57,012 bases of DNA from an uncultured Planctomycetales bacterium (GTDB taxonomy: Bacteria > Omnitrophota > Gorgyraeia > Zapsychrales > JAHFFX01): assembly GCA_964464475.1 (NCBI GenBank), contig CAYXGG010000012.1:2611-59622 (forward strand), read 5' to 3'. The notes beneath the pieces were generated by a model. It was given only the letters and a program-made list of their open reading frames with translations, had not been told where the DNA came from and searched no databases. Positions 43,387 through 57,012 of this stretch are shown here, piece after piece (within the stretch, counting starts at the first letter, position 1; each line of letters begins with the position of its first letter). The position numbers and the translations under genes are program-made.

Positions 43387-43812
43387 ATGAGTCCAACTTC
43401 GCAAGCCAATTTTAAGCGCAGTTTATTTTTAAACGTCAACAAGTATCAGCGTCCCATCCTTTATTTAATTCTTCTCCCGTCACTTTTTTCCTGTACGATC
43501 TTGTTCTCCTACATTCTTTATTTTCAATTTGAAGTCATCTCGACGTTGTATTCACCGGAAGTCAAGGATACTGAGCAGTTGATGATTAAGTCGTTGTTTG
43601 TTTTTGGGTTTTTACTCATTTCTTTTCTGGGGGTTGTTCTGTGGGCCTTCCGCACTTCCAGTAATTTGGTAGGAGCGTTTGAACGTATTATCACTGAATT
43701 GGACGCGATATTGGCTGGAAAAGGGAAAAAGCATGTTTATGCCCGCAAGGACGATCAACTCGCAAATGATTTGCTTAAACGGGTTAACGCCTTAATTGAT
43801 AAACTTCCATAA
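43387..43812 (+). CDS. Hypothetical membrane protein, two TMs plus HAMP-like tail
   Basis: Two TMs then LVGAFERI...RKDDQLANDLLKRVNALIDKL (HAMP-like pattern). Confidence 0.6.
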   Translation: MSPTSQANFKRSLFLNVNKYQRPILYLILLPSLFSCTILFSYILYFQFEVISTLYSPEVKDTEQLMIKSLFVFGFLLISFLGVVLWAFRTSSNLVGAFERIITELDAILAGKGKKHVYARKDDQLANDLLKRVNALIDKLP

Positions 43813-43819
43813 AAATACT

Positions 43820-44446: not shown

Positions 44447-44449
44447 CAT

Positions 44450-45040
44450 ATGACTCAAGAACCTGTTTCCTTTTCCGATAACATCAAATTGCACTGGTTA
44501 ATTTTAGGGATAGTTTTTGCTATCCCTTTTTTAATTTATTACGCCGTTGAAAATCCTAACTCAGTCGTGGCTAAAGTCTTTTTTATCGAACCATCCTATA
44601 TCAAAATGCGGAAAGGGTTTCAGCTGATGGAGGGGTTTGAAAGTTATTCGTCCTTAGAGGATGTAACCTATGATTTAAAGCAACGGGGTGTATCGTCCCG
44701 GGTTTCCTCCAGACTGCTGACGACCACCCCCCAAAAGCCCTATGTCCTTCAGACCATGGAAGTGTCCGGGTATGTTTATCAAGGAAACGTGGGCCACTTA
44801 AAGGCTATCTTCTTTAACGATCGATTAAGTGGGGTGCAGTTTTTCCCTAATGATCCCGATGATATGCGCACTATTCTGATGCAGCAATATAAGAAACGAA
44901 TTGATCTTAATAAAAAACTTAAAATTAGCACTTATATCAACTTGCGCTATTTTAAGGAAAAAGATGATCGTTATGTCTTTAGCTGGGAAGATAGGCGTTT
45001 GGTGGCAGAAGAATTGGCCTGGCTGATGCGTAATACGTGA
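44450..45040 (+). CDS. Hypothetical N-anchored membrane protein
   Basis: 196-aa ORF with a single N-terminal TM. Confidence 0.6.
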   Translation: MTQEPVSFSDNIKLHWLILGIVFAIPFLIYYAVENPNSVVAKVFFIEPSYIKMRKGFQLMEGFESYSSLEDVTYDLKQRGVSSRVSSRLLTTTPQKPYVLQTMEVSGYVYQGNVGHLKAIFFNDRLSGVQFFPNDPDDMRTILMQQYKKRIDLNKKLKISTYINLRYFKEKDDRYVFSWEDRRLVAEELAWLMRNT

Positions 45041-45091
45041 TGCAACCTTATTATTTAGGCTGCTTTCCCTCGTAAATTTCTGAAAACTTCC

Positions 45092-45119
45092 TTGCATTCC
45101 CTTCACTCTTCTCTAAAAT
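45092..45119 (+). promoter_or_regulatory. Putative sigma70 promoter of the type IV filament operon
   Basis: TTGCAT-16-TAAAAT followed by an AT-rich leader. Confidence 0.5.
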
Positions 45120-45142
45120 TAAATTAATTAATATATAAATAT

Positions 45143-46042
45143 ATGTTCCAAGAACTCAAAAAATGGGTGGAGCATTTCGTCGAAAAGGATTCGAGGCTAA
45201 GCACTTCTGAACCTGCCTCAGCTCTTTTTTTGGATGAATCGGTCTCCCCTAGAATACTGGTAGTCTGCAATCAGAAGGGAGGGTGTGGAAAAACGACCAC
45301 AGTCATCAACATCGGTGCCTTTTTGGCTAGTCAGGGCAAGAAAGTGCTTGTTATTGACTTAGACACCCAAGGACACGCTTCATTAGGGTTAGGTGTGGAC
45401 GTGGAGAAAATGAATTGGTCTATTCATGATGTCCTGATCAACAATGTTGATTTAAATCGAGTTATTGTTCCGACCTATGTTAAAAATTTATTTGTTTGTC
45501 CGGCCAATCATATGCTTTCCGGAGCTCAGCTCCAATTAGCAAACCTTATGGCTCGCGAAAGTATTTTAAAGAACGCATTGCAAAAGTTATACCAAAGTCA
45601 GCCTTATGACTATTGCTTGATTGATACCTCCCCAACGTTGAATTTGATAACGCTGAACGGGTTAGTGGCCGCTTCGCATGTTCTGATCCCCATTCAAACG
45701 CATTATTACGCGTTAGAGGGGATGAAAGAGCTTTTTTATACGATTGATGTGGTTCGGGAGCGATTAAACCCTTCGTTAGAAATTGCCGGAATATTGCCAA
45801 CCATCTTTGATTCGCGCATTAAATCCAACCGTGACATTTTGGCCCAGCTGAATGAGTATTTTAAAGGATTGATGTTTAAGTCAGTGATTCATTATTCAAG
45901 CAAACTTGTGGAAGCGCCGCTGTATCGTAATCCGATTGCTATCTATGCTCCGGATTCCAAAAGTGCTAAAGAATACGGCGATGTCACTCAGGAAGTCGTG
46001 GAAAATCTTGCCAAGGGACGAGCGCATGGAATCAGATCCTAA
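45143..46042 (+). CDS. ParA/Soj-family ATPase
   Basis: NQKGGCGKTT deviant Walker A, IDLDTQG, IDTSP, IPIQTHYYALEG, LVEAP. Confidence 0.9.
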   Translation: MFQELKKWVEHFVEKDSRLSTSEPASALFLDESVSPRILVVCNQKGGCGKTTTVINIGAFLASQGKKVLVIDLDTQGHASLGLGVDVEKMNWSIHDVLINNVDLNRVIVPTYVKNLFVCPANHMLSGAQLQLANLMARESILKNALQKLYQSQPYDYCLIDTSPTLNLITLNGLVAASHVLIPIQTHYYALEGMKELFYTIDVVRERLNPSLEIAGILPTIFDSRIKSNRDILAQLNEYFKGLMFKSVIHYSSKLVEAPLYRNPIAIYAPDSKSAKEYGDVTQEVVENLAKGRAHGIRS

Positions 46043-47204
46043 AAACTTGGTGCGCGAGGTTTTTGATAAAAAGGGGTCTCCTCGGGAAAAAGTTTCCTCC
46101 ATTTTTGCTGAGCCTATGGCGAATGAAGAGTCTGTTCTGGTTCAGGAATTTCAAGCTCATAAAAAAGGCGCTCTTACGCCCTGGGCGATTGAATGGGGAA
46201 AGTGCAGTTGCAAGTTTATCCAGCTGAGTAAATCAACAACTAACGTTGAATTGGCTAAAATCGCTTATTTTCATTCCCAAGTCAACGGCAAAACTTTAAC
46301 TGACTTAAAGGTTGAACTAAATGCTTTTATTAAAAAGAATTCTATTAAAGGATCAGCTGTCTTAACGATCCCTTTAAGTGAAACGCAGTTTTTTTGTTTT
46401 ACTTTGCCGGATATGCCGGAAGCGGAAATTTCTCAAGCAGCTTATTGGAAAGTAAAGCAGCTTTTGGGAAATAAGTTTCAAATCACACAATTGAATTTTG
46501 ATTTTGTTACTTCTCAAGTGGCGGTCAATAAAGTTAAGGAGTGGAAGGTGGTAGCTTTTGGTGTTGCCAAAGATTATCTGACGCAGGTTCTTGCTAGCTT
46601 AGAGGGGTTAAAAATTACCGCGGTGGATGTGGAACCGTATGCTCAGTTTTGCGCTTTATTTTGGGCGCAGCAACTGTTGGCGAAAGAAACGGTAGGAATT
46701 CTCCATTTGGGGGCCTCAGAAAGCTCTTTGAGTCTGGTGAACAATTTTAATTTTGTTCATACACAGTTGTTAAACTATTCGGGACGCCACCTTACGGAAG
46801 CGATTGCCAGTAGTCAAAAAATTGATTGGCAAAAGGCAGAATTGATCAAGAAACAGGAAGGGGTCCGTCTCATGCCAGTGACTTCGGGAGCTGATGGCAA
46901 TCGCGCTGTTGTCAGTCAGCTGGAAAGTCTCGCTCTTGACGTAGAGCACGCTGTAAGAGTTTTTACCGGTAACGCCAAACCGGCCGTTAAGGGACTCAGT
47001 AAATTGGTGCTCGTGGGTGGCGGAGCGCTGATGAAAAATGTCGAACGTTTTTTGTCGGATAGGCTCGATTTGCCGGTTGTTATCTTTGATTCATTCCATG
47101 TGTCACGTTTAATTCTTAAAGAAGAACTGCATCCGGTTTTTCGGCAGAATCCCGCTCGTTGGAGCGCGGTTTTGGGAACGTCATCTCGATTTCTGGAATG
47201 GTAA
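46026..47204 (+). CDS. PilM-like actin-fold pilus assembly protein
   Basis: LPDMPEAEI, VDVEPYA, HLGASES, GRHLTEAIA..AELIK, LVGGGALM, RLDLPV; precedes pilN/O-like genes. Confidence 0.75.
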   Translation: MESDPKNLVREVFDKKGSPREKVSSIFAEPMANEESVLVQEFQAHKKGALTPWAIEWGKCSCKFIQLSKSTTNVELAKIAYFHSQVNGKTLTDLKVELNAFIKKNSIKGSAVLTIPLSETQFFCFTLPDMPEAEISQAAYWKVKQLLGNKFQITQLNFDFVTSQVAVNKVKEWKVVAFGVAKDYLTQVLASLEGLKITAVDVEPYAQFCALFWAQQLLAKETVGILHLGASESSLSLVNNFNFVHTQLLNYSGRHLTEAIASSQKIDWQKAELIKKQEGVRLMPVTSGADGNRAVVSQLESLALDVEHAVRVFTGNAKPAVKGLSKLVLVGGGALMKNVERFLSDRLDLPVVIFDSFHVSRLILKEELHPVFRQNPARWSAVLGTSSRFLEW

Positions 47205-47785
47205 AACCAAAATTTCTTAATTTATTACCGGCGTCGTCCGGAGCAAAAAAGTCAACCTCTGGCTTTCCGGGACAAGGATTGCTTTTAATCCTCTTGATGT
47301 TGATCCTTTTGCCAGCGGCATACTACGGTGTACAGCAAATAGTTTTAGTTGGTAAACTGCGTTGGGAAGTGGCTGAATCCAAGCGTAAAACGCATGACGC
47401 CAAACTCAAACTGAGTCAAGCTCAATCGCAGCTGTTGCAACTGGAAAAGGACAAAGTCGCCTTGTTGACTGAAGAAGAAAATCTCAAGAAAAAGCAAAGC
47501 TTGCTGGTGTCCACGATGTCCGAAGGTAAGAGTTTTTCGGGAGCCTTAGCCGCTTTTGCTGCGCAGGTTCCAGAAAATGTGTGGTTAACTCAGTTGGCGC
47601 TTAGCAAAGAGGAAGTGGTTTTAAGTGGAACTACCTATGAAGCACAAATGATCACTCAATTTATGAATGATTTGAATTCTTCCGGAAAATTTAGTAACAG
47701 TCGATTTACTTCGAGTGAAAAGCAATTGTTAGAGGCTCAGTCCGTGCAAACTTTCTCCATGACAACTCAACCGGTCTGGGAATAA
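47198..47785 (+). CDS. PilN-like protein
   Basis: LNLLP motif, TM, coiled coil, VPENVWLTQL..LSG..FMNDL..F. Confidence 0.8.
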   Translation: MVKPKFLNLLPASSGAKKSTSGFPGQGLLLILLMLILLPAAYYGVQQIVLVGKLRWEVAESKRKTHDAKLKLSQAQSQLLQLEKDKVALLTEEENLKKKQSLLVSTMSEGKSFSGALAAFAAQVPENVWLTQLALSKEEVVLSGTTYEAQMITQFMNDLNSSGKFSNSRFTSSEKQLLEAQSVQTFSMTTQPVWE

Positions 47786-47788
47786 ACC

Positions 47789-48682
47789 ATGGCGACGCCT
47801 ACTTCACACCAGCCTTTAACAAGTCCGAATAAACGTACGTTAAGCCGGCAGCAATGGTTGCTGCTTTTTTTAGGGTTGGTGGCAGGAGGAAGTCTTTATT
47901 TGAATGTTTTTGTCAAATCGTTGTGGAAAGAGTCAGGGTCGCTTAGAAAACAGAAAGCGGAGGCGGGACGGCAGCTCGATGAAGTCAAGGCCCAAATGCC
48001 TAATTTGAGTACCACTCAAGTAGAGCTTGAATTATTAAAGGAACGTATTGAGGCGGCGCAACAAGCTAATCGGGGGACAGAAGCTAAACTGTTAAGCGAA
48101 AAACAACTCCCGGATTTCTTAACGCAATTAATAAAATGTGGGCAGGGTTTAAATATTGATTTTCAGTCGGTTAAACAGGAGATTCAGGCGGATAAAGCGT
48201 CTTTTTCACGGTTGTGGGTAGACATGAAGTTTGTGGCTAATCATGAGGATATCGTGAATTATTTGAACCGAATTGAACACATTTCACCCTTTATTCGTTT
48301 GGAAACTTTGTTGCTGACACCTCAGAAAGAAGCCCCGGATGAGAAAATTCTTACCGGATTAAAGATTAGTGCGTTACTGGCTTCTCAGGAAGCTTCGGGT
48401 GCTTCGTTGTTAGGAGCTTGCGAGAACGTACCTGCGGTTCAGTCGTTAGTCGCAAAAAATCCGTTTGCCCCTGATATCAAAAAAGTGGTGATCAAAAAAA
48501 GAGATTTAAAATTGCTGGGAATTACTTTTCGCGGACGGGGAAAAGTTTCTAGCGCACTCATTAACGATACCATGGTTAAAGAAGGGGATGAGATTCAAGG
48601 ACAGCGGGTAGAAAAAATCCAGTCGGATTATGTGCTTTTAAACGATGGAACTGAAAAATACCGTCTAAACGTGGAGCGATAA
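47789..48682 (+). CDS. PilO-like protein fused to a PilP/GspB-like C-terminal domain
   Basis: TM, coiled coil, LPDFL..YLNRIE; then KNPF and LLGITF..ALINDTMVKEGDEIQG.RVEKI. Confidence 0.7.
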   Translation: MATPTSHQPLTSPNKRTLSRQQWLLLFLGLVAGGSLYLNVFVKSLWKESGSLRKQKAEAGRQLDEVKAQMPNLSTTQVELELLKERIEAAQQANRGTEAKLLSEKQLPDFLTQLIKCGQGLNIDFQSVKQEIQADKASFSRLWVDMKFVANHEDIVNYLNRIEHISPFIRLETLLLTPQKEAPDEKILTGLKISALLASQEASGASLLGACENVPAVQSLVAKNPFAPDIKKVVIKKRDLKLLGITFRGRGKVSSALINDTMVKEGDEIQGQRVEKIQSDYVLLNDGTEKYRLNVER

Positions 48683-48687
48683 TACTT

Positions 48688-50520
48688 ATGAGTTTATTGA
48701 CCTTCCCATCATTAAATGAAAAAAGGCCATTTAAAATACTATTCCCGCTGGTAATCTTCGCCTGGCTAATGCTTGGTAACGCTCAGTTAGCTCACAGCCA
48801 GGATAGCCGTGACCTGAGTGCGGATATGCCCAACGTTGATGCTCCTGCAGTTGTAGATCCTATCGAATTAAATAGCGAAACCCAGCTCAAAGATACGTTG
48901 CAAGAGATAGTCACTTTGGATTACAAGGATGTGGAAATTGCGACCATTTTACGCTCTTTGAGTCAAACCTATGATTTGAATTTAGTGACATCTCCGGAAC
49001 TAAAAGGTAAGGTCACCGTCTCCCTAAAAGACGTCACCGTGCAAGAAGCGCTGGAAGTCATCCTTTCTTCGGGTGGCTATAACTATTCTAAAAAGGGCAA
49101 CATTATTTATGTTGTGTCCAGCTCCGAAGATGTTCAGCTAGCCAGCGAACCACTCATTCTTAAATATATGAAAGCGGGCGAGGCCGCTAATTTATTGAAA
49201 AAAGTGCTTTCGCCCAAAGGGGATATCAAGGTTGATGAAATGTCTAATATTATCTTAATTACTGATTACCCCTCATCGATTGATAAAGTTAAAGAACTCC
49301 TTAAAACCGTTGACGCGCCTCCTTTGCAGGTTCTCATCGAAGTTAAGATTGTGGATATTACTTCGCAGGATTTGCGTAATCTTGGTGTCACCTGGGAAAT
49401 GGACTATAATCCCGGATCAGGTTTATTTGGGCGGCGTACTGAAACGGATGAACGTATCACCAGTACCGGTTCATACGCGGGACCTTCGTCATCGCTTTCC
49501 ACAGGGCAAATTCGTCTCGACACCTTTTCAATTAAAGATTTCTCTGCATCGGCAACGATCGATGCCTTAGTGCAGGATCGGAAAGCAAATTTGCTCGCGT
49601 CGCCGTCCATCGCGGTTATGAATAATCGTGAAGCACGGATTATTATCGGTGAAAAAGTTCCATATAAAGAGCGCACTCAGTCAACCACCGGGACCACCGA
49701 AACTACCAAATTTATTGATGTCGGAACAACGCTGCGGGTGACGCCCTCTATTAATCCGGACGGGTATATTACGATGATGATCCATCCGGAAGTTTCTTCA
49801 GTCACGACACTCTTGGACGCTGGCCCGCGTATTACCACCCGTGAGGCGGATACCATGGTGCGTGTTAAAGAAGGAGAAACGTTGGTGATTGGAGGGTTAA
49901 TCAAGCAGGAGGACAGTCAAACGCATTCCGAAACACCCGTGCTTGGGAAAATTCCGATCTTGGGATTTTTGTTTGGCAATAAAAGCAAAGACCAATTGCA
50001 AACCGAATTGGCGGTTTTTATTACACCAAAAATCTTAAGATCACATGAAGAAATGGCCATTGAAAAACGTACACGCTATGATGAAGAAGCGGCGGTCAGT
50101 GTTATGTCGTCGGGTTCCTTGAACGCACAGTCTTTAATGATGGCCAAAGCCGTAAATTTAGAAAATTCCACCGGTCTGGAATCGCGTCGCAAGGAAGATT
50201 GGCAACGCTTAAATCAATCGTTAAGCATTTTCTCGACAATCTACACACAGTTTCCTGACGGTCCATTGGCTCCGGAGGCGGCGTATCGGGCAGCCGTCAT
50301 TTATTTTAGGGATTTTGATGAGCTTTTTGAAGCCAAGGAACTATGTGGCAAAATTATTTCTGATTACCCTAAGTCGCCGTATGCGGCTAAGGCAAAAAGT
50401 CTTTTTAAGCGCATCAATCTTATTCTGGAAGCTCAGGCCCAACGAAAAGTTCAGAAGGCCAAGGACCAAGAAGATCAGCAGGACGTATTAACCGAACCGG
50501 CCACCAATGCGCTGCCTTAG
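48688..50520 (+). CDS. Secretin (GspD/PilQ family) with C-terminal TPR-like extension
   Basis: TLDYKDVEI, GKVTVSL, N3 domain, QVLIEVKIV, LASPSI, VGTTLRVTP, GETLVIGGL, PVLGKIPILGFLF, VFITPKI. Confidence 0.9.
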   Translation: MSLLTFPSLNEKRPFKILFPLVIFAWLMLGNAQLAHSQDSRDLSADMPNVDAPAVVDPIELNSETQLKDTLQEIVTLDYKDVEIATILRSLSQTYDLNLVTSPELKGKVTVSLKDVTVQEALEVILSSGGYNYSKKGNIIYVVSSSEDVQLASEPLILKYMKAGEAANLLKKVLSPKGDIKVDEMSNIILITDYPSSIDKVKELLKTVDAPPLQVLIEVKIVDITSQDLRNLGVTWEMDYNPGSGLFGRRTETDERITSTGSYAGPSSSLSTGQIRLDTFSIKDFSASATIDALVQDRKANLLASPSIAVMNNREARIIIGEKVPYKERTQSTTGTTETTKFIDVGTTLRVTPSINPDGYITMMIHPEVSSVTTLLDAGPRITTREADTMVRVKEGETLVIGGLIKQEDSQTHSETPVLGKIPILGFLFGNKSKDQLQTELAVFITPKILRSHEEMAIEKRTRYDEEAAVSVMSSGSLNAQSLMMAKAVNLENSTGLESRRKEDWQRLNQSLSIFSTIYTQFPDGPLAPEAAYRAAVIYFRDFDELFEAKELCGKIISDYPKSPYAAKAKSLFKRINLILEAQAQRKVQKAKDQEDQQDVLTEPATNALP

Positions 50521-50531
50521 GAGTTATTTTC

Positions 50532-51746
50532 ATGGCCACTTTTCTCTACAAGGCTCGCGATCCAAAGGGCAATCTGGTCAATGGAGTTCTCGAAGCACCC
50601 GATGAAGGGCAAGTCGTTGAGTCGCTGCAAAAGCTAGATTTAAGTCCTGTCGCTATCACTGTTCAATCCGCGTTTCAGAAATTCTTTGAAAAGGACGCCA
50701 CCTGGCGCCCGGTACCGCATCAGGAAATTCTTGTTTTTACCCGACAGCTTTCTACTCTCGTCAGTAGTGGTGTCCCCCTCATTCAATGTTTGGAGAATAT
50801 CAGTCGTCAGATTGCTCATCCGCGATTTAAATTTGTCGTCCTTGGGTTGGTAGAAAAATTAAAAAGCGGTAACAGCCTTTCTCAGGCGATGGCGAACTAT
50901 CCGGACATTTTTTCTGAATTTTATATCAGCATGCTAAAAGTCGGGGAAGCCGGCGGTCTGATGGACAAAGTTTTAAAGAGACTCGCCGATTTAAGCGCTC
51001 AAGATTTGGATTTACGTAGTCGTCTCAAAAGCGCGCTTATTTATCCGGCGCTTTTGGCAGGTGTTGCCTTTGTGATTGTGAATTTTGTCATGATTGCAGT
51101 CCTGCCTAAGTTTGTGTCTATCTTTGAGGCTTCTGACGCTAAGTTACCCTTGCCAACGGTTCTTTTGCTGACGATTAGTGATTTACTGAGACATTATTGG
51201 TGGGTGGGGGTCGGGGGTCTGTTCTTGTTGGCTTGGTGGCTTAAGGTTTATTACAAGTCTTCGCCGGGACGCTACAAGATTGACGCTCTCGCGTTGCGTT
51301 TGCCTATGGCAGGCCCGCTGATATTAAAAATTTTGGTTTGTCGATTTTGTCGTTCCATCGCCGCCTTGACCAAATCCGGTGTTCCCATTTTGGAGTCATT
51401 GAAAGTCGTGCAAGGAACGGTTGGTAACGCGGTGCTGGAGGTTTTTTTGCAAAATATTCAGGAATCCATTTCTCGAGGGAATAGTCTCACGGAACCATTT
51501 GAGAATTCCGGATTGTTTCCTCCAATGGTCATTCAGATGATCAGTACCGGTGAACGGAGCGGGCAACTGGGGGAGATGTTTGACCAGATCGCCGATTTTT
51601 ATGAACCAGAGGTTGAATATACGATTCGAAACCTGACGAGTATTCTTGAACCGGTCATGTTGTTGGTCATGGGGGCGATTGTCACCTTTATCGCCTTGTC
51701 GGTGTTATTGCCCATATTTAATCTAATCAAAATCATCCGCAGGTAG
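50532..51746 (+). CDS. GspF/PilC inner-membrane platform protein
   Basis: FLYKARD, FTRQLSTLVSSGVP, GEAGG, SALIYP, GERSGQL, ILEP. Confidence 0.93.
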   Translation: MATFLYKARDPKGNLVNGVLEAPDEGQVVESLQKLDLSPVAITVQSAFQKFFEKDATWRPVPHQEILVFTRQLSTLVSSGVPLIQCLENISRQIAHPRFKFVVLGLVEKLKSGNSLSQAMANYPDIFSEFYISMLKVGEAGGLMDKVLKRLADLSAQDLDLRSRLKSALIYPALLAGVAFVIVNFVMIAVLPKFVSIFEASDAKLPLPTVLLLTISDLLRHYWWVGVGGLFLLAWWLKVYYKSSPGRYKIDALALRLPMAGPLILKILVCRFCRSIAALTKSGVPILESLKVVQGTVGNAVLEVFLQNIQESISRGNSLTEPFENSGLFPPMVIQMISTGERSGQLGEMFDQIADFYEPEVEYTIRNLTSILEPVMLLVMGAIVTFIALSVLLPIFNLIKIIRR

Positions 51747-51754
51747 GAGGGACT

Positions 51755-52222
51755 ATGATCCAACAAGTTCAAAAAGTAAAAAGAAGAGGTTTTACCCTCT
51801 TTGAATTGCTCATTGTGATTTCCATTATCGCTATTTTGGCTGCGACGATTGTTCCTAATTTTATTGGGTTTGATACGGAGGCACGCTTGTCCTCAACGCT
51901 TTCCAATCTCAATACCCTGCGTACGCGGATCGCTTTATACCGCGCCAAAGAGGGTGAATACCCTCAATCCCTCAATGATTTGTTGACCAAAACCTATGAT
52001 GATATGGGCGTTGAGCAACCTTACCTTGAAAAAGTACCCCCCGAAATGGTTTCCTCCAAATCAGGTAATAATTCATTTGTTGATTTAGAAAGTAAAGATG
52101 AATTTCCTGGCGATGGAGGTTGGGTTTATGTTCGCGACAAAGCCAAATTATTAATTGATCTTGCTGAACCTTTGGATGGAAAATGGGGCGCGCGATCCGG
52201 TGAAAAACCTAATGAATGGTAA
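51755..52222 (+). CDS. Major pilin/pseudopilin (GspG-like)
   Basis: RRG|FTLFELLIVISIIAILAA class III signal; GEYPQSLNDL. Confidence 0.88.
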   Translation: MIQQVQKVKRRGFTLFELLIVISIIAILAATIVPNFIGFDTEARLSSTLSNLNTLRTRIALYRAKEGEYPQSLNDLLTKTYDDMGVEQPYLEKVPPEMVSSKSGNNSFVDLESKDEFPGDGGWVYVRDKAKLLIDLAEPLDGKWGARSGEKPNEW

Positions 52223-52880
52223 ACTGTTTTCGAGTACGTCTTCTTCTTGTTTGTCTAGAACCTATCCGAAAATTACTGGTGAGAAGATTTTGGTTGAGCC
52301 TTGCGCCGGAACGTTGGTCCAGCCCCAGCGAGGCTGGCCTGCACTCGACCGAAACCCTTCTCTCGTCCCAGTTTTTGAAAAAGTTCCAAAACTGGGACTC
52401 CGTGCCCGCTTCGGGTTTCGGACGTCCGGCTTCAGACTCACCCAAAATCTCAGGGACAATTTTCAGACAACTTCTACTCATTTCTCACATTATCACTCGC
52501 TAAATTCTATCCCCAAGGTGCGCCGCGGATCAGATCGTGGCGCCGTTTTATTAATTGTTATTATTGTTATGTTAACCGTGTCTATTTTGGGCGCGACACT
52601 CGTGACATTGTTTTTTAATGTCCTAACGGTAGGACAAAATGAACTGCATCGCGCGCAAGCTTTATACCTTTCTGAAGCGGGTATCGCGGTCGCCATGAAA
52701 AATTTAAAAGGACAGAAAGGGCAGAAGGTTGTTTTGCCCGAAAACAGAATTGTCCCGGTTACTCAGTTGGGGGAGGGGACCTTTGAGGTGTTCTTAGATC
52801 AAGCCGAATCTACCTTGGTTTCGGTGGGGGTTAGTCATGGCGTTTCCAGAACAATCCAATTGAAATACAATGCATATTAA
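52212..52880 (+). CDS. PilX/GspK-like minor pilin with expanded leader
   Basis: DRG|AVLLIVIIV (no Glu+5), QALYLSEAGI motif; start ATG 52212 overlapping the upstream stop, or GTG 52518. Confidence 0.75.
   Translation: MNGKLFSSTSSSCLSRTYPKITGEKILVEPCAGTLVQPQRGWPALDRNPSLVPVFEKVPKLGLRARFGFRTSGFRLTQNLRDNFQTTSTHFSHYHSLNSIPKVRRGSDRGAVLLIVIIVMLTVSILGATLVTLFFNVLTVGQNELHRAQALYLSEAGIAVAMKNLKGQKGQKVVLPENRIVPVTQLGEGTFEVFLDQAESTLVSVGVSHGVSRTIQLKYNAY
52256..52476. mobile_element. MITE-like palindromic element, 221 bp, TA at both ends
   Basis: Terminal IRs TAGAACCTATCCGAAAATT / AATTTTCAGACAACTTCTA (15/19) enclosing four nested stems; no transposase. Confidence 0.75.
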
Positions 52881-53433
52881 TCTTCCTTATCCCACAAAGA
52901 AAAGAACTGAGAAAGTCCCTACGGTTTCTCGCCACAAAGAAGAAAGAGTTAATGCCTGCCTGCCGGTCAGGCAGGGCTGTCTGACCGCTAGGCCTTTTGA
53001 GTTTACGAAAATTATTAGAAAAAAAAAGATCACTAAAACCGCTTTTACTTACATCGAGATTTTAATCACGTTAGCGATTTTAGCGGTTCTATTTGTGCCT
53101 ATGATGCGACTTTTTTCCAGTGCACTATTTTCAGCTACGGTTTCCGGAGATCTGTTGACCGCGGTCAATTTGGGTCGCGCACAAATGGAGCGCGTTAAAA
53201 ATCTTAATTTATCCAAAGAACAATTACGCCAGCTAGGTATCCTTTGGACTCCGCCATTAGAAGAAAATCCCTTAATGCTTAATAAAGGCGAATGGCGAGT
53301 GCGAACCACTTTCAAGAATGAGTCTGATCCGTTGCAAGTGGAGGTGGATGTGTTTTTGGTGGCGGATGAAAAGAAACCGGTTGTTTCCTTGGTTACTTTA
53401 ATCGAAGATCCCATTTGGTCATTGACACAATGA
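52870..53433 (+). CDS. PilV/GspI-like minor pilin with long leader
   Basis: KTA|FTYIEILITLAILAV; AVNLGRAQMERVK. Confidence 0.78.
   Translation: MHINLPYPTKKRTEKVPTVSRHKEERVNACLPVRQGCLTARPFEFTKIIRKKKITKTAFTYIEILITLAILAVLFVPMMRLFSSALFSATVSGDLLTAVNLGRAQMERVKNLNLSKEQLRQLGILWTPPLEENPLMLNKGEWRVRTTFKNESDPLQVEVDVFLVADEKKPVVSLVTLIEDPIWSLTQ
52955..52975. repeat. REP-like palindrome inside a prepilin leader
   Basis: CCTGCCTG-CCGGT-CAGGCAGG, 21 nt, read as ACLPVRQG. Confidence 0.65.
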
Positions 53434-54641
53434 TGAAAACTACCAATCACGGGTTGACTTTAATTGAGTTGGTGGTCGCGCTGGTGGTTTCCATTCTCAT
53501 TGCCGCGGCATTATATTTTACCTTGCAGAGTTCTTTGGAGAGTTGGGATGTGACCCAAGAACAATTAGTCCTGCAACATGTGCTCGCGCAAACAGCCCAA
53601 GAATTGATTGATGGTTGGGACAATTTCGGTATTCGCGATGGGTTGGAAATTAAAGCCGCTGATGCAACTTCAGTCAGTTTGATTATGCCATGGAGTGATG
53701 ATTCGTATCAGGTGTTGGCGGGTGTGAATACTTATGAACTTATAAAGAAAATCAAACCGGGAACGGGAATTCCTATTGCCGAAGCGCTATTGCCGGGAAA
53801 AGAATCTTATGAAGTTATTCCCATTAAGTTGCTGGATCCAGGTCGTCAGGGGGGCTTGCCGCAAGTCTATTTATCAATTAAACTTCCTGTAGGGACATTG
53901 TTAAGGTTTACCTATCATCCTGATTCGGCTCAAGATCCTCAGGTTATGACGACCTTCCGATTTGACGCTGAAGCAGGTGTTCTCTTAAGAGAAGATGAAG
54001 GGGGCGTGGTCAACATTTCCAAGAATCCTTTTGGCGTGAAAGTCAAAGGAGTTAGGTTTCGCTACTTCGATAACCTGAATAGGGAAATAGATGCTTCAGG
54101 GGACATTTCCGCGCGTCAGGTTAATTTGATTAGCGGGATTGAAATCAATATAAGCGTCATCAGTAAGTACGCAAATATAAGAGAATCAATGACTTTTGTC
54201 GCTCTCAGAAACGCTCCTACCCGCACCGGTAACATCCTACTTAAGGAAGGCGATCGCTTTCCGATTCCCAACTCCGAAAATATTCGGGCCCTAACTATAA
54301 ACAATTTTTTTGGTGTCGATAATGATTCCCAATTAGTATTAAAAGCCACCCCTAGCTCGGGAAAAGAGTGGCAATTGAAAATCAAATTTGCTAAAACCTC
54401 CTCCTTAAGTCCTGCCCTCATTGATTCTTATTCCATTGAATACCCGGAAGGCAATGTGGTTTATTCCGAGCAGCCGCGCGTTTCAGCAGAGCAAGGAATA
54501 AATTTATTGTCACTTGGAACTAACGGTCGTTTTGATTATGATGATGATGGGTTAGAGGATCAGGTTTTTTTGGAGGGTGACGTGGAACTATCAGTTGAGA
54601 AAATGGAATTAACAGGCGCATCTTTATTTGTTAAACCTTAG
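53430..54641 (+). CDS. Large PilW/GspJ-like minor pilin
   Basis: HG|LTLIELVVALVVS; FRYFD and VALRN motifs followed by an extra C-terminal domain of about 140 aa; ATGA overlap. Confidence 0.78.
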   Translation: MMKTTNHGLTLIELVVALVVSILIAAALYFTLQSSLESWDVTQEQLVLQHVLAQTAQELIDGWDNFGIRDGLEIKAADATSVSLIMPWSDDSYQVLAGVNTYELIKKIKPGTGIPIAEALLPGKESYEVIPIKLLDPGRQGGLPQVYLSIKLPVGTLLRFTYHPDSAQDPQVMTTFRFDAEAGVLLREDEGGVVNISKNPFGVKVKGVRFRYFDNLNREIDASGDISARQVNLISGIEINISVISKYANIRESMTFVALRNAPTRTGNILLKEGDRFPIPNSENIRALTINNFFGVDNDSQLVLKATPSSGKEWQLKIKFAKTSSLSPALIDSYSIEYPEGNVVYSEQPRVSAEQGINLLSLGTNGRFDYDDDGLEDQVFLEGDVELSVEKMELTGASLFVKP

Positions 54642-54651
54642 GCGAGCGAAG

Positions 54652-55092
54652 ATGAAAAAAAATACAACACTCGTTTACATTTTAACAATTCTAACTATGC
54701 TGATAAGTGTGAATTCATTCGCTGAAGATAAAGATTGGGTTGGAGATGGTGATGGCGTCAGCTGGGAAGATAGCGATAATTGGAGTCCTTCCGGTAAACC
54801 TGGTGTTGCCGATGCGGTCACGGTTAATGATCAAAATGCCGAAGTTTCCATTGCTCAAACATTCTCGTTTCAATCATTAAATGTGGGTGGCGGAGAAACT
54901 TCACAAGTGCGGGTTGAAGATTTTATTTCCGGGTCCGCAGATCCCATTGATGCCACTAATGATGCGATCCATGTTCGTAAAGATGGTGTATTGGTTTTAA
55001 CTGGTGAAGGTGTCATCACACTCAAAGGAATATTTCGCAACACGGAAACTCAACTGGAGACTGAACCCGCTTTTATGTTTACACTTGAATAA
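54652..55092 (+). CDS. Small acidic exported beta-rich protein
   Basis: Signal peptide ending SFA; WVGDGDGVSWEDSDNWSPSGKP motif of the kind seen in adhesin/autotransporter passenger regions. Confidence 0.65.
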   Translation: MKKNTTLVYILTILTMLISVNSFAEDKDWVGDGDGVSWEDSDNWSPSGKPGVADAVTVNDQNAEVSIAQTFSFQSLNVGGGETSQVRVEDFISGSADPIDATNDAIHVRKDGVLVLTGEGVITLKGIFRNTETQLETEPAFMFTLE

Positions 55093-55093
55093 A

Positions 55094-57012
55094 ATGACTA
55101 GATTTTTAAAAAACGAAGATGGTAATTATTCGCTTGTTCAAGCGAGCTTCGTTTTTGTTTTAATGAGCGTTCTTTTATTAGGGACGCTTTTTTCTTTTTC
55201 TGAAGCCGGCCAATTATTATTTGATGGTGTGCCGGTGGATATCACCACTACGGACAACGAAGATTTAGTTATTACACCGGGTGATGGTGGTAACACGCAA
55301 ATCGGTGATTCTTTAAACAACAATGACTACGCCACTACTAATGATGATTTATACATCACTGGAATTTTAGAAGTCGATGGACGCGTGTACGCACCAACCG
55401 GTATCACGAGCGCTACCATCCTGCCCATAGCAAATTCATTACATGATTTAGGCAATTCCAGTACCTGCTGGGCTAACGTGTATTTAAACGAAATTCTCAG
55501 TTGCGGGGCCGCGCTCACCTTGACTCCGGCCAGTGGGTATAGCTTGCTGGGATCAGTCACTAAAAGTTCTACGGGTGACGAATATGGTTATTTACTTTCT
55601 TCAATCATTAACAAAACTTCCGGAAATTATACCGCGCTCAAAGTGGCTGTCACCGAAACAGCGGCCCCTGGAACCGCGGATAAGCTTTTGGATATGTTGG
55701 TGGGAACCACGAGCTATCTTCAAGTTTATAATGGCGCTAATTCCGCCAATTATGGCTTAGTGTCGATCGGCCCGGGGCCATGGAATGGGTCATCGTTAGG
55801 ATTTTTTAATGGTTCAACGAACGGTACGCAATTGGCCATCAATTCCGCCAGTTCGTTTACCGGGAACCTCGTTGATTTTCAAGTGGGGGGTGTCAGCAAA
55901 TTCAGCATTGATAAGGACGGTAATGTTTTCGCGGCCGGCTCTCTGGGGGGAGGTGGCGCTGTTACGGGAACAGGTACTGCGAACCGAGTCGCTAAATGGA
56001 GCAACGCCTCGACCTTAACCAGTTCGGGGATCGCTGATTCTTCTGACGCGGTCGCGGTCACTATTGACAGTAGTGAAAATATCGGCGTTGGAACCACTAG
56101 CCCCACCGGACGATTGGATGTTCAGGGAGATGAAGTTCGTATTTGGACGGGAGCGGGCACGAATACGAATGCAGTGTCTTCCGGTGAATTGTACGTAGAA
56201 GGTGATTTGGAAGTGGATGGCGTGCTTTATGGGGACGCGTCAGGATTAACTAATATTCCTTCTGCCGGCTGGACGGATGGGGGGACGACGATTCGGCTGA
56301 CAACCGCTTCCGATTTAGTGGGCGTGGGAACGACAACCGCGCAAACCAAATTACATATTTATGGCGCTAGTGGGTTACGTATCCAGGATGATGGTACTAA
56401 TAATTACTTAACTTTAGCTGAATTAAGTTCAGGTATTTATGGGTATTCTGATTCGGGGGTTTCGAGTTTTGTTTTTAATGGACAGAACGTTGGTATTGGC
56501 AGTACTTCGCCCGCTTCTCTATTAGATATAGCGGCTGGAGGATCCGGCTTACGTTTTGGGGCTGGAACGATGCAAGCTTATGGGGGCAGTCCGCTGATTT
56601 TTCAATTTGATGGAACGGCGCACGCGAATATGACCTCCAGTGGTTTTAATTTTCTAACCACGACCGCCTTCGGCAACAATTCGTCATCGTTAACGTCATC
56701 CGGGCGGATCGCTATCGGTACCTTGAACCCAACCGGAGCTTTGGATGTCAGGACCGATGAAGCGCGTATCTGGACGGGTGCCGGAACGAATACCAATGCC
56801 AATGCCGCTGGTGAATTATATGTGGAAGGTGATTTGGAAGTTGATGGAGTGATTTATGGCGATGGATCAGGCCTGACTAATATTACTACGGGTGGGTGGT
56901 CGGACAGCGGAACCAACGTCGCCTTGCAAACGCAGTCGGATAATGTGGGGATTGGGACAACGAGCCCGGTCAATAAATTAGATGTAGAGGGCGCGACCGT
57001 CATTGGGGCCGC
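55094..57012 (+). CDS. Large repetitive tail-fibre-like adhesin (3'-truncated; absent from ORF track)
   Basis: Manual translation from ATG 55094 is stop-free to the window end (>639 aa); hydrophobic N-terminus; repeated (N)VGIGTTSP-like motifs; Gly/Thr/Ser-rich. Confidence 0.85.
   Translation, partial: MTRFLKNEDGNYSLVQASFVFVLMSVLLLGTLFSFSEAGQLLFDGVPVDITTTDNEDLVITPGDGGNTQIGDSLNNNDYATTNDDLYITGILEVDGRVYAPTGITSATILPIANSLHDLGNSSTCWANVYLNEILSCGAALTLTPASGYSLLGSVTKSSTGDEYGYLLSSIINKTSGNYTALKVAVTETAAPGTADKLLDMLVGTTSYLQVYNGANSANYGLVSIGPGPWNGSSLGFFNGSTNGTQLAINSASSFTGNLVDFQVGGVSKFSIDKDGNVFAAGSLGGGGAVTGTGTANRVAKWSNASTLTSSGIADSSDAVAVTIDSSENIGVGTTSPTGRLDVQGDEVRIWTGAGTNTNAVSSGELYVEGDLEVDGVLYGDASGLTNIPSAGWTDGGTTIRLTTASDLVGVGTTTAQTKLHIYGASGLRIQDDGTNNYLTLAELSSGIYGYSDSGVSSFVFNGQNVGIGSTSPASLLDIAAGGSGLRFGAGTMQAYGGSPLIFQFDGTAHANMTSSGFNFLTTTAFGNNSSSLTSSGRIAIGTLNPTGALDVRTDEARIWTGAGTNTNANAAGELYVEGDLEVDGVIYGDGSGLTNITTGGWSDSGTNVALQTQSDNVGIGTTSPVNKLDVEGATVIGA
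56081..56970 (+). repeat. Intragenic duplicated module (about 85 aa, 627-bp offset)
   Basis: RIWTGAGTNTNA..GELYVEGDLEVDGV.YGD.SGLTNI...GW.D.GT occurs in copies starting near 56081 and 56708. Confidence 0.85.

Follow-up and report, generated by a model that had tools for sequence, protein, structure and literature searches.

Why should a type IV filament gene cluster run directly into the gene for a giant fibre that resembles the tail fibres of phages? This question is raised by a stretch of 57,012 nucleotides (the window, meaning the whole stretch analysed) from an uncultured Omnitrophota bacterium. A type IV filament cluster that is conserved in Omnitrophota and mixes T2SS with MSH/T4aP types has its front part in the window, and the dedicated partner of this cluster appears, on balance, to be a Sec-exported, trimeric, phage-tail-fibre-like (MAT-like) fibre, whose export we infer.

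Organization of the Gene Cluster

Between positions 45143 and 57012 lie twelve genes in one orientation. All were named in a first-pass annotation of the sequence, and all are present, as judged from Pfam and NCBIfam profile searches together with sequence motifs; signal peptides were read by eye. The features are as follows.

45143..46042, + strand: ParA/MinD-type ATPase, first gene of the cluster (Pfam AAA_31, E 5.7e-56; CbiA, E 9.6e-24)
46026..47204, + strand: PilM-like actin-fold assembly protein (PF11104 PilM_2, E 7e-18, 65.1 bits against a cut-off of 27)
47198..47785, + strand: PilN-like protein (PF05137 PilN, E 3.4e-13)
47789..48682, + strand: PilO/GspM-like protein with a C-terminal PilP/GspC-like extension (PF04350 PilO, E 2.2e-8)
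48688..50520, + strand: secretin of the outer membrane, with N0/STN and N domains plus a C-terminal tail resembling TPR/BamD (PF00263, E 1.9e-50; Secretin_N; STN)
50532..51746, + strand: GspF/PilC inner-membrane platform protein (PF00482, E 3.8e-63, two domains)
51755..52222, + strand: pilG, GspG-like major (pseudo)pilin, prepilin motif RRG|FTLFE (N_methyl, E 6.3e-8)
52254..52476, no strand assigned: MITE-like hairpin repeat in the pilG-pil2 spacer (blastn copies on other contigs, and its fold)
52518..52880, + strand: pil2, minor pseudopilin of 120 aa with a GTG start (NF037980 GspK, E 4.6e-5, 23.1 bits against a cut-off of 130)
52870..53433, + strand: pil3, minor pseudopilin, motif ..TA|FTYIEIL (read by eye from the sequence)
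53430..54641, + strand: pil4, large minor pilin of 403 aa, motif NHG|LTLIE (N_methyl, E 7.2e-5)
54652..55092, + strand: 'small', exported beta-rich protein of 146 aa (signal peptide read by eye)
55094..57012, + strand: giant fibre gene, first 639 codons, with a Sec-type signal peptide (..SEA|GQLLFDG), the N-domain and the first shaft repeats; it continues beyond the window

From parA to the fibre gene, the intergenic distances are -17, -7, 3, 5, 11, 8, 295, -11, -4, 10 and 1 nt. The earlier statement that no spacing exceeds about 11 nt thus holds for ten gaps and fails at the pilG-pil2 junction, where 295 nt house the MITE-like repeat. This element forms a long, imperfect hairpin (-89.6 kcal/mol on one strand, -114.1 on the other), recurs on contigs C16 (90% over 207 nt), C5, C28 and C27 by blastn, and finds no match in an Rfam search. 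The related genome G003 differs by lacking the repeat spacer: on locus L013 the match to pilG runs to 11967 and that to pil2 starts from 11987. A long open reading frame from 52155, which the first-pass annotation took as the gene, was ruled out as pil2; its N-terminal part is the repeat read in frame, and pil2 orthologues align only from residue ~115-135 of that frame onward. Terminator-like sites (18 in the scan vs 16.0 +/- 4.1 in shuffles) are not commoner than in shuffled sequence, and promoter-like sites number 22 vs 23.3 +/- 5.2. The start of PilM is uncertain; the ATG at 46026 shares 17 nt with parA.

The Fibre and Its Continuation

How large is the fibre, and what follows it? The reading frame is cut by the end of the window, which is a 100-N scaffold gap with the same 55-bp overlap, in frame, on both sides. 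A single read-derived contig (run X2) bridges the gap, skipping 155 nt; this run may derive from the source sample, and the bridging is therefore not independent. Fibre homology is confined to the end of contig C12 and the start of contig C3, on which the end of the fibre is followed by a DUF6701 (MshQ-like) Ig protein and then by GspE. Although the two contigs share no sequence overlap and their join is drawn from synteny, the same order (fibre, Ig protein, GspE) occurs on single contigs in G003 and G279, and in the genome of the window (G000) the Ig protein and GspE very probably follow the fibre. The first-pass annotation stopped at the end of the window, and so missed the MshQ-like protein and the ATPase. 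No GspE/PilB ATPase is encoded within the window itself; the one on C3, downstream of the fibre, carries an MshEN domain.

The fibre is at least 5,252 aa long. A trimer with over 5,000 residues in each chain would, to our knowledge, far exceed any known T2SS or T4P cargo in size, which counts against its export by such a machine. The conserved N-terminal domain (N-domain) spans mature residues 1 to about 245 and is followed by the shaft repeats. The repeats of VGIGTTSP type noted earlier are real, with 57 [VIL][GA][IVL]G[TS] motifs in the visible part, and a Pfam/NCBIfam scan of the fibre detected no other sorting domain. By sequence, the shaft is homologous to the solved MAT fibres of Bdellovibrio (8OND, Bd2133, E 8.8e-9; 8OJN, E 1.2e-4), which confirms the likeness to Bdellovibrio fibres named in the first-pass annotation. 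The tip, encoded on C3, adopts a phage tail-fibre fold in its predicted model (pLDDT 77.8): Foldseek returned 209 matches in BFVD at E <= 0.001, the best being a 'Tail fiber protein' (E 2.6e-13, TM 0.75, 51% identity), which bears out the phage likeness first proposed.

Could a phage-derived or transposon-borne gene simply have landed in the cluster, with no role there? Besides the phage-like tip, IS200-like Y1 transposase genes adjoin fibre genes in G000, G006 and G034, and the MITE-like repeat sits within the operon. However, the cluster proteins scanned included none for phage structure or replication, the conserved N-terminal domain is particular to these fibres, and linkage conserved in several classes and gene orders, as set out below, brings this explanation close to refutation by synteny; we regard it as highly improbable.

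Linkage across Omnitrophota

The first-pass annotation had staked its reading on the fibre gene being linked to the cluster in relatives, and this linkage is there. The N-domain gene lies inside the pilus/secretion cluster in 34 of the 35 Omnitrophota genomes that carry it, a count made up of strong matches to the N-domain profile A4 (E <= 1e-30) in 28 of the 401 genomes of a class sample, five more from a phylum sample (three of them from other classes) and the family relatives G001 and G002. The locus is arranged in at least four ways: pil4-small-FIBRE, GspE-FIBRE-Ig-pil4-small, GspE-pilG-FIBRE and GspE-pil3-FIBRE. Because the N-domain gene keeps to the cluster in so many genomes and through these several orders, a functional link between the T2SS/T4P-like machine and the MAT-like fibre is, from comparative sequence evidence, well supported. 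Of the idea of a dedicated machine that exports or displays fibres, it is this tie that stands firm; dependence of export or display on the machine is the somewhat likelier case.

The linkage has its limits. In the exception, G318, GroEL/DnaK genes surround the N-domain fibre, which lies 718 kb away from that genome's Ig-pil4-small module, on a scaffold that contains N runs. In G024, pilins, Ig protein and GspE are present and tblastn detects neither 'small' nor fibre; the cluster can thus exist without a fibre. The N-domain is absent from most genomes of the order to which the window belongs, and G006, G004 and G034 carry MAT-like fibre genes without this domain, away from any cluster genes; therefore, MAT-like fibres need not generally have the cluster as their neighbourhood.

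Are pilus and fibre, then, no more than co-regulated neighbours, both serving attachment to host or prey from one operon, with the fibre never touching the filament? The fibre would in that case cross the outer membrane and be anchored by a different route; for the MAT fibres of Bdellovibrio, too, the surface anchor is stated to be unknown in the available text of PMC10769870. The unlinked fibres of G006, G004 and G034 and the displaced one of G318 fit such an arrangement. Against it, the linkage persists across classes and through at least four rearrangements, more than is usual for co-regulation, and no fibre outside the cluster was found, within the window's order, to carry the N-domain proper (query residues 1 to about 250). 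Shaft repeats and tip domains are less restricted, being present in fibre genes without the linkage as well. This N-terminus is, moreover, the anchoring end of phage fibres and, by the inference of the authors of PMC10769870 in that same text, of MAT fibres too. We consider mere co-regulation rather unlikely.

A Hybrid Machine

Another question concerns the kind of machine. A classical piston-type T2SS would use a short periplasmic pseudopilus to expel free cargo, namely the fibre and perhaps secreted proteins encoded nearby; the fibre would be released or re-bind the surface by itself, and would never sit on a filament tip. The top NCBIfam models for three components are indeed of T2SS type, namely GspF (TIGR02120, 381.1 bits against a cut-off of 424; PilC models, 329 and 315), GspE (588.3 bits) and the major pilin (TIGR01710, 47.6 against 88.85), but all of these scores are below the curated cut-offs. 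T2SSG is borderline for pilG (20.6 bits vs a cut-off of 21). The N-terminus of pil2 is GspK-like, being hydrophobic and without Glu5, the cluster has no retraction ATPase, and the fibre, like T2SS substrates, bears a Sec-type signal peptide. On the other side, the inner-membrane parts are PilM, PilN and PilO rather than GspL and GspM, the ATPase has its MshEN domain, and the minor pilins are accompanied by the DUF6701 MshQ-like protein, whose C-terminal strand is conserved; MshQ is the predicted tip protein of a surface pilus (available text of PMC13533445). A piston-type T2SS is distinctly improbable.

The secretin scores about equally with PilQ and GspD (261.4 vs 259.0 bits, both below cut-off; MshL 161.6), and its residues 508-588 have weak YfiO/TPR_6 matches. 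PilM scores 61 bits with TIGR01175, below cut-off, and residues 231-294 of the PilO-like protein match T2SSB (E 0.002), GspC_delta (E 3.1e-4) and GspM (E 4.9e-5) weakly, all below cut-offs. ParA has no NCBIfam model at or above its own cut-off. It is plausible that ParA localises the machine in the cell, because its gene lies immediately 5' of PilM in 11 of 11 assessable loci of relatives; the genes 5' of ParA are not conserved together with the cluster. By analogy, the ParA-like TadZ/CpaE positions Tad pili.

Among the minor pilins, pil3 has no match in Pfam or NCBIfam, and its orthologues are present in the clusters of relatives. Its sole canonical start is the ATG at 52870, beyond which no ATG, GTG or TTG occurs within the first 200 nt; if used, it would give an unusually long leader of 59 aa. 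In the AF2 model of pil4 (mean pLDDT 85.5), a long helix at the N-terminus (residues 11-60) leads into beta domains, and a Foldseek search with this model against the PDB gave nothing meaningful, so that a GspK/PilK fold is not assignable. The C-terminus of pil4 (..KMDI.GAGLFVRP) is conserved.

How Might the Fibre Be Docked?

The protein 'small' has no match in Pfam, NCBIfam or PHROG. Its profile gathers 641 representative proteins, and the full-length ones among the matches listed are standalone proteins of ~140-230 aa. It has a conserved C-terminus (EP[SA]F[ML]F..E), and at the extreme C-terminus both it and the Ig protein are conserved throughout the class. In the class survey its gene adjoins pil4 at 28 of 28 loci, in 27 of them downstream. 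Among the 401 genomes of the class sample, in which related genomes are not independent, 26 have both 'small' and the N-domain, five 'small' alone, two the N-domain alone and 368 neither.

Does 'small' bind the fibre? A complex prediction with three N-domain copies and 'small' scored 0.59, against 0.02 for the best of three controls; runs agreed in at least 51% of contacts, and partner pLDDT was at least 82. In calibration 58 of 80 solved complexes passed, as did 2 of 110 mismatched pairs, yet passing scores of 0.60 or less comprised just 7 of the 80 solved complexes and both passing mismatches, and the present job used self-made alignments in a setup unlike the calibration. Such a pass, which by the tool's own account is more often wrong than right unless the pairing was likely beforehand, lends weak support to the predicted binding, and this weakness counts in favour of mere co-regulation. 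There are precedents for such docking: in the available texts, TcpF has an export signal in its N-terminal segment, which binds the tip minor pilin (PMC10120004), and PilY1/PilC attach to PilK-type minor pilins via a C-terminal strand, as MshQ does by prediction (PMC13533445).

A fibre handled by the filament machine could work as follows. Sec would carry the fibre over the inner membrane, and trimerisation would take place in the periplasm. The N-domain would then dock on a filament tip module of the minor pilins pil2, pil3 and pil4, probably via 'small', the constant neighbour of pil4; this specific route through 'small' and pil4 is possible but doubtful. GspE on the GspF platform would drive filament growth and push the fibre through the secretin, with the phage-like receptor-binding tip pointing outward. 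The fibre would either remain attached as an adhesin or be released.

Implications

To call this an undescribed system, as was done at first, overstates the case: two preprints already report, in the text available, T2SS-like loci beside giant genes in Omnitrophota (10.1101/2023.11.21.568195 and 10.64898/2026.06.07.730766). The terms 'fibre' and 'tail fiber' are absent from the main texts of both. At the end of the route sketched above, the fibre would bind the surface of a host or prey cell, and if this is true, a fibre displayed by the machine would serve these bacteria for gripping other cells.

Gene organization and borders of the cluster

The source genome, an Omnitrophota assembly of 2,183,532 bases in 40 contigs (completeness 92%, contamination 1%) from an organism of freshwater or biofilter settings, carries twelve co-oriented genes from position 45143 to the end of the window, and this series, proposed in the first-pass annotation, is confirmed by an ORF listing and by Pfam/NCBIfam scans. 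The genes are parA, pilM, pilN, pilO, secretin, gspF, pilG (for a GspG-like major pilin), the minor pilin genes pil2, pil3 and pil4, a gene called small here (for an exported protein of 146 aa), and the gene for a giant fibre. The same scans give the PilO gene product a C-terminal part with a weak PilP/GspC-like match, and the secretin a TPR-like tail.

These genes had been described as overlapping or at most about 11 nt apart. Computed with the most likely start codons, the gaps from parA to the fibre gene are -17, -7, 3, 5, 11, 8, 295, -11, -4, 10 and 1 nt; the description holds for ten of them and fails for the 295 nt between pilG and pil2. That spacer (window 52223-52517) contains a hairpin-folding, MITE-like repeat of ~220 nt (core 52254-52476), copies of which lie on four other contigs (C16, C5, C28 and C27) at 72-90% identity, while in G003, a relative of the same family, pilG and pil2 stand without such a spacer. 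Placed after the major pilin gene, the repeat could serve as a transcriptional attenuator. The long pil2 ORF read earlier was discarded, as its N-terminal part is the spacer repeat translated as protein. As for pil3 (window 52870-53433), the nearest canonical start lies 59 codons upstream of the prepilin motif, and the gene has either a very long leader or a non-canonical start.

Do the twelve genes form one transcription unit? The earlier statement that no terminator was found settles nothing, because terminator-like and promoter-like sites are as frequent here as in shuffled sequence and are therefore uninformative; a terminator-like site at 55165-55189 was rejected as a boundary on the same ground. 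Rfam returned no match at E <= 0.1 over 43000-57012. At the other end, four small ORFs upstream of parA were considered as members and rejected, since they are not conserved alongside the cluster, and 45143 is for this reason a good left border. The genes found at 38406-42976, directly upstream, encode a succinate-dehydrogenase-type Fe-S protein and enzymes of haem synthesis (a HemN-like radical SAM protein, uroporphyrinogen decarboxylase and a protoporphyrinogen-oxidase-like flavoprotein); they are ordinary metabolism, unrelated to the cluster.

Continuation of the fibre gene

The window ends, at 57012, on a 100-N scaffold gap (G000:C12:59623-59722, G000 being the source genome and C12 the contig), whose two flanks repeat an identical 55 bases in the same reading frame. 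One contig from the public read run X2 joins the flanks and omits exactly 155 bases, so that the true join is the overlap merged; this bridge is not independent support, because the run may stem from the sample behind the assembly. The in-frame overlap and the bridge thus carry the fibre ORF on for 3,237 further codons, as far as C12 reaches. The only other fibre similarity in the genome is at the start of contig C3, where a fibre frame stays open for 1,394 codons, with an N run inside, and ends at C3:4185. We infer the join of C12 to C3, as the two contigs share no overlapping sequence. The visible fibre amounts to 5,252 aa, with 57 VGIGT-type motifs and 17 GDLEVDG-type modules. Contig C3 also contributes the following features.

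Features of contig C3 beside the fibre frame
After the fibre end: secreted protein of ~452-455 aa, without a family in Pfam or NCBIfam
Locus L021, 5592-6284, opposite strand: IS200-like Y1 transposase (PF01797)
Ig-rich protein of ~720 aa (the Ig protein): DUF6701 domain, E 9.6e-15
GspE-type ATPase: T2SSE, E 1.6e-134, with an MshEN domain

In two other genomes, G003 and G279, the fibre gene, the Ig protein gene and the GspE gene succeed one another on a single contig each, a succession that supports the C12-C3 join and supplies the ATPase missing from the window.

Transposase genes of the IS200-like Y1 type adjoin fibre genes in three genomes (PF01797, E 4e-6 to 5e-11): in L021 (G000:C3), in L053 (G006:C8) at 16892-17623 and in L055 (G034:C39) at 2813-3508. 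A connection with fibre gene turnover, or with the repeat elements, is possible.

A fibre of three parts

The likeness of the VGIGTTSP-type repeats to Bdellovibrio fibres, put forward in the first-pass annotation, is now a sequence match. With phmmer against the PDB, the middle part of the fibre (3,237 aa) finds 8OND_A (Bd2133) at E 8.8e-9 and 8OJN_C at E 1.2e-4; the first 639 aa, which lie in the window, have no match among PDB sequences at E <= 1. Pfam and NCBIfam assign no family to the parts of the fibre, to the small protein or to three orthologous fibres, and neither Peptidase_S74 nor another sorting domain was found in the fibre with them. The tail fibre families of PHROG match weakly (E 2.4e-4 for this fibre, 7.6e-10 for the G003 orthologue).

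The last 117 residues, the tip, were modelled as a beta sandwich (mean pLDDT 77.8, from an alignment of five sequences), for which Foldseek gives weak matches to phage spikes in the PDB (best 9ny6_C, E 2.3e-3) and 209 matches at E <= 0.001 among the predicted viral structures of BFVD. The best of the latter is a 'Tail fiber protein [uncultured marine virus]' (E 2.6e-13, TM 0.75, 51% identity, rmsd 1.0 over 92 columns). Orthologous fibres range from 358 to over 5,000 aa and differ in their C-terminal ends, which fits the tip swapping reported for the mosaic adhesive trimer (MAT) fibres of Bdellovibrio.

What the orthologues share is the beginning: a plain signal peptide, read by eye, and then the near-invariant mature N-terminus G[QT]L.F[DE]GVPVDITT, which opens a conserved N-terminal domain (N-domain). 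A prepilin leader at this place was considered and rejected, because the orthologues have a plain Sec-type signal peptide ending in ..A before G[QT]L.F[DE]G. Against PDB sequences, the N-domain profile touches a tail spike (E 0.0035) and a cyanophage fibre (E 0.051) through the motif ..TYDLGSS..W..Y. Its trimer model has a mean pLDDT of 90-92, from a job that scores the partner chain only, and the fibre as a whole would, judged from the homology of its middle part to the MAT structures, be a homotrimer.

These sequence and fold matches make the fibre a three-part mosaic, in which a lineage-specific N-domain is followed by a MAT-like shaft and a phage tail-fibre tip. Is it then part of a prophage? 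Among the cluster proteins scanned, no virion genes of a phage or prophage were found around it, the PHROG matches being confined to the weak ones of the fibre itself; the genes that flank it belong to a type IV filament and are conserved throughout the phylum.

Fibre genes also occur in another setting. In G006, the locus L053 (G006:C8, 1-16855) holds three in tandem (1,454, 2,085 and 2,054 aa); these have the tip in common with the G000 fibre (48% identity) and stand without the N-domain and without adjoining cluster genes.

Linkage of the fibre gene to the cluster

A giant gene within such a cluster might simply have been inserted there by chance, and the place of the fibre gene in relatives bears directly on this explanation. 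In the family relatives G001, G002 and G003, pil4, small and the fibre gene follow in the same order; in G007, the contig ends just after small. Among the 168 genomes of the order sample, the N-domain proper is confined to G000-G003, and the matches in seven other genomes cover shaft repeats only; in three of these seven (G006, G004 and G034), the fibre genes inspected lie beside other giant genes, away from cluster genes. A search of genome contigs with a single N-domain sequence matched the G003 contig alone.

The class sample (401 genomes) allows a count. The profile of the small protein matched 31 genomes, and in all 28 loci returned the gene adjoins a pil4 orthologue, downstream of it in 27. 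The N-domain profile, which covers residues 1-120 of the mature fibre, matched 28 genomes strongly (E <= 1e-30). Both were found in 26 genomes, small alone in 5, the N-domain alone in 2 (each cut by contig ends) and neither in 368. The surroundings of every strong match were fetched, and in 27 of the 28 genomes the fibre gene sits inside the cluster, in one of four arrangements.

Arrangements of the fibre gene within the cluster, class sample
..pil3-pil4-small-FIBRE-..-Ig-GspE: 13 genomes
..pil3-GspE-FIBRE(-Ig-pil4-small): G176, G232, G259, G268, G288, G320 and G340; G221 and G297 in part
GspF-GspE-pilG-FIBRE: G245, G533, G354 and G296
GspE-pil3-FIBRE: G209

The exception is G318, whose fibre gene lies among those for GroEL, GrpE and DnaK; Ig-pil4-small is 718 kb away, and the scaffold contains N runs. 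The phylum sample, again of 401 genomes, added five further genomes, three of them from other classes, and in all five the gene is in the cluster; for G699, this placement is given by an N-domain profile match 774 nt after GspE, where tblastn had no match.

The first-pass annotation had held that its reading would fall if the fibre gene were unlinked to orthologous operons in relatives. The gene is found in the cluster in 34 of 35 genomes, G001 and G002 included, although genomes that share ancestry do not count as independent cases. G318 and the clusters that lack a fibre gene (G024 and the five genomes with small only) show that the tie has exceptions. The association nevertheless persists through several rearrangements and across classes, which is strong evidence for a functional tie between fibre and cluster and leaves chance insertion a remote rival.

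The kind of machine

Which known machine does the cluster resemble most? None of the proteins scanned reached an NCBIfam equivalog cut-off.

Scores of cluster proteins against family models (bits)
GspF: T2SS GspF TIGR02120, 381.1 (cut-off 424); PilC models, 329 and 315
GspE (on C3): T2SS GspE TIGR02533, 588.3 (cut-off 630.25); PilB, 570.8
Major pilin: T2SS GspG, 47.6 (cut-off 88.85)
Secretin: PilQ TIGR02515, 261.4 (cut-off 284.35); GspD TIGR02517, 259.0 (cut-off 351.35); MshL, 161.6 (cut-off 250.2)

For GspF and for the ATPase encoded on C3, the best-scoring models are those of T2SS, both below their cut-offs. The secretin, secure by its Pfam domain (171.2 bits, cut-off 27.5), scores about equally as PilQ and as GspD, below the cut-off in each case. 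PilM_2, PilN and PilO domains exceed their Pfam cut-offs (PilM TIGR01175 reaches 61.1 against 133) and take the place of GspL, GspM and GspC, of which the traces are weak (GspM 23.1 bits against 60, GspC_delta 20.6 against 150). The ATPase has an MshEN domain (65.4 bits, cut-off 23.1), and the Ig protein a DUF6701 domain (55.2 bits, cut-off 27), which we take to be a mark of MshQ. A second T2SSE gene, as a retraction ATPase PilT would require, was not found in the cluster; shorter T2SSE-type ORFs exist elsewhere in G000, on C23, C6 and C27. Given the sub-cut-off scores, the PilM/N/O set, MshEN and DUF6701, the cluster is filed only as a type IV filament machine, apparently intermediate between T2SS and MSH/T4aP.

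It does not stand alone. Besides a single prepilin peptidase, G000 has genes for eight secretins and seven GspF proteins, and 14 T2SSE matches that pass the cut-off; its small genome (2.18 Mb) thus holds many systems of this kind, of which the cluster is one. Secretion-type loci or giant ORFs are spread over contigs C1, C6, C7, C10, C17, C18, C21, C25 and C2. On C1, a 6,930-aa ORF lies between secretin and GspE/GspF genes, and ORFs of 2,402 aa (C10) and 1,998 aa (C18) are each near secretin/GspE/GspF-type genes. Each machine may have its own giant cargo.

Candidate partners of the fibre

If fibre and filament belong together, do they touch? A rival explanation is that the two serve a parallel function without contact. 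Both the Ig protein and the small protein are encoded beside pil4, and in both the extreme C-terminus is conserved across the class (..FGRI.K.GIGTLMWREIK and ..EP[SA]F[ML]F..E, respectively).

On contact itself, a complex prediction of three N-domain copies with the small protein scored 0.59, the best of three controls being 0.02. No fewer than 51% of the contacts are shared between runs, with a partner pLDDT of 82 or more. In the calibration, 58 of 80 solved complexes passed the mark, as against 2 of 110 mismatched pairs; only 7 of the 80 passed with scores up to 0.60, the range that also holds both passing mismatches. The prediction used alignments built for this analysis and was a job unlike the calibration set. 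It lends weak support to a contact between the N-domain and the small protein.

The pil4 model (pLDDT 85.5) has no meaningful Foldseek match in the PDB, the best being seed storage proteins at TM ~0.14, and its profile finds pilin N-terminal helices only among PDB sequences (E 0.055 and weaker); a GspK/PilK-like fold was not recovered among solved minor pilins by these structure and profile searches. The profile of the small protein meets RemA over 46 residues (E 0.0045), and in the ESM Atlas the protein has no family, its nearest clusters being hypothetical proteins with few taxon labels, Verrucomicrobiota.

The N-terminal half of the small protein (..W.G.GD..SWED..NW.P..) repeats up to ten times in giant proteins that are unrelated to one another and range from 800 to more than 7,000 aa (P0029-P0150 of the matches to its profile). 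By sequence, the protein thus resembles one copy, standing free, of a module that very long surface proteins use. In two relatives, unrelated small ORFs lie between pil4 and small: 131 aa in L018 (G002, 2441-2836) and 128 aa in L019 (G007, 1013-1399).

Comparison with known systems

Each constituent is of a kind already known, be it the filament machine of type IV, the MAT fibre or the phage fibre tip.

With the MAT fibres of Bdellovibrio, as far as the available text of PMC10769870 (Caulton et al. 2024) describes them, the fibre has in common a signal peptide ahead of a conserved N-terminal domain (a likeness of layout, the domain of the 21 MAT proteins being described as ~130 aa and beta-rich, and their PDB entries being C-terminal constructs), a long shaft of ..G.VGIGTT.P.. 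repeats homologous to the solved trimeric beta-prism/beta-helix structures 8OND and 8OJN, variable and swappable C-terminal tips, and a presumed role in recognizing other cells. Lacking S74 and having a separate beta-sandwich tip, it fits the NS74 subgroup described there. It differs in size, 5,252 visible aa against ~1,000-1,150 residues, and in its setting, as the gene is embedded in a filament cluster, whereas that text does not mention the neighbours of MAT genes. The same text states that the surface anchor is unknown and names type IV pili only as of possible interest; its authors infer that the N-terminal end is anchored and that the C-terminal tip binds.

With the MSHA and T4aP pili, the cluster shares PilM/N/O-type alignment proteins, a secretin, an MshEN ATPase and a large DUF6701 protein that is not a pilin; it is encoded next to the minor pilins, and its extreme C-terminus is conserved here. 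In these pili, according to the accessible part of PMC13533445 (Ellison et al. 2026), the large tip adhesins PilY1/PilC, and by prediction MshQ, are held in place by their last strand, which is added to the PilK-type minor pilin. Unlike them, the cluster has MshL, PilQ and PilB scores below the equivalog cut-offs, a GspG-like major pilin and a ParA heading the operon, and its module also takes in a further exported protein, the small one, along with a fibre of phage-like type.

A further parallel is the export of TcpF by TCP and of CofJ by CFA/III, both type IVb pili. Each of the two proteins crosses by Sec and has its gene among those of the pilus; the mature N-terminus is the recognition element, and the cargo leaves via the secretin by filament growth. 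For TcpF, the export signal is the N-terminal segment, which attaches to the minor pilin at the tip (Nguyen et al. 2023, PMC10120004, in the portion consulted). Here the mature fibre N-terminus, GQL.FDGVPVD, is nearly invariant, and its binding to a pilin is putative. The cargo, however, is a huge trimeric fibre instead of a small globular protein, and its N-terminal element a folded domain of ~110-245 residues, not a disordered peptide.

The classical Gsp T2SS shares the secretin, the GspE-, GspF- and GspG-like proteins, the minor pseudopilins and a Sec-dependent putative substrate. By this likeness, the machine could also secrete a free fibre in the manner of a piston. On the other side stand the differences: the cluster has PilM/PilN/PilO instead of GspL or GspC as such, an MshQ-like partner, an ATPase gene after the cargo gene, and equivalog scores below the cut-offs.

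Finally, T2SS-like loci beside giant genes have been described in Omnitrophota by two preprints (10.1101/2023.11.21.568195, West-Roberts et al. 2023, and 10.64898/2026.06.07.730766, of 2026), and the likeness, from their main texts, lies in the same phylum and in genes of gspD/E/F type, together with small genes for class III signals, beside genes for very long surface proteins. The locus of the former preprint, as presented there, contains rcpC and a Rotamase_2 isomerase, with pilZ genes after the giant gene, families for which Pfam gave no match in 24 proteins of the window and C3 (to ~6 kb past the fibre end). What sets the cargo here apart is its N-domain, defined, conserved and of a docking type, together with the tip of a phage tail fibre; the terms 'fibre' and 'tail fiber' are absent from both main texts, to which the supplements may add. 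Among the papers that a literature search listed, none describes the export of a fibre by a type IV filament, and their titles and abstract openings show no link of fibre and filament cluster in Omnitrophota, supplements again perhaps holding more.

The first-pass annotation had taken the locus for its best candidate for an undescribed system. This claim is too strong, as the neighbourhood of T2SS-like and giant genes is already in the two preprints. G000 has it at other loci as well. Four things appear to be new: the identity of the cargo as a MAT-like, phage-tipped fibre; a private N-domain that marks the cluster-linked fibres; a conserved pair of pil4 and small, with the DUF6701 protein; and a linkage of fibre and cluster quantified across the phylum.

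How the fibre might leave the cell

How could such a fibre be exported and held? In the mechanism proposed here, the N-domain would load the fibre onto a tip module of the filament, perhaps through the small protein; growth of the filament would then push the fibre through the secretin; and the N-terminal end would remain anchored with the C-terminal tip free to bind, by analogy with phage fibres and with what the MAT authors infer. That export or display of the fibre is coupled in some general way to the machine is reasonably probable. The particular docking route, from N-domain to tip module and small protein, is a tentative proposal. Doubtful, too, is the most complete picture, that of a type IV filament bearing a phage-tail-fibre-like trimer at its tip, with pil4 and the small protein as an adaptor that holds the N-domain, and with the fibre shot out via the secretin to harpoon cells of a host or prey. 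Machines of this type are not known to carry any cargo like a trimer whose chains each exceed 5,000 residues. The harpoon would measure up to ~0.2 micrometres, a length extrapolated from the 142 A per 370 residues of Bd2133 in the available text of PMC10769870.

Significance

Omnitrophota are ultra-small bacteria, thought to be predators or parasites (PMC10066038, in the part consulted). For the model predator Bdellovibrio, how MAT-type fibres are exported and held at the surface is stated to be unknown in the available text of PMC10769870. A related fibre with a private N-domain, locked into one filament cluster across a phylum, names a candidate export machine, and with it the candidate adaptors pil4, the small protein and the MshQ-like protein. 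The locus further lends molecular detail to the association of secretion genes with giant genes that has been reported in Omnitrophota, and the question can be tested with a cluster whose fibre is short, such as that of G003 (1,169 aa) or G245 (984 aa). If the picture of a fibre-tipped filament is true, this would be the first known route of export and anchoring for MAT-type fibres, and it would bring a new class of cargo, and a wider cargo range, to type IV filaments.
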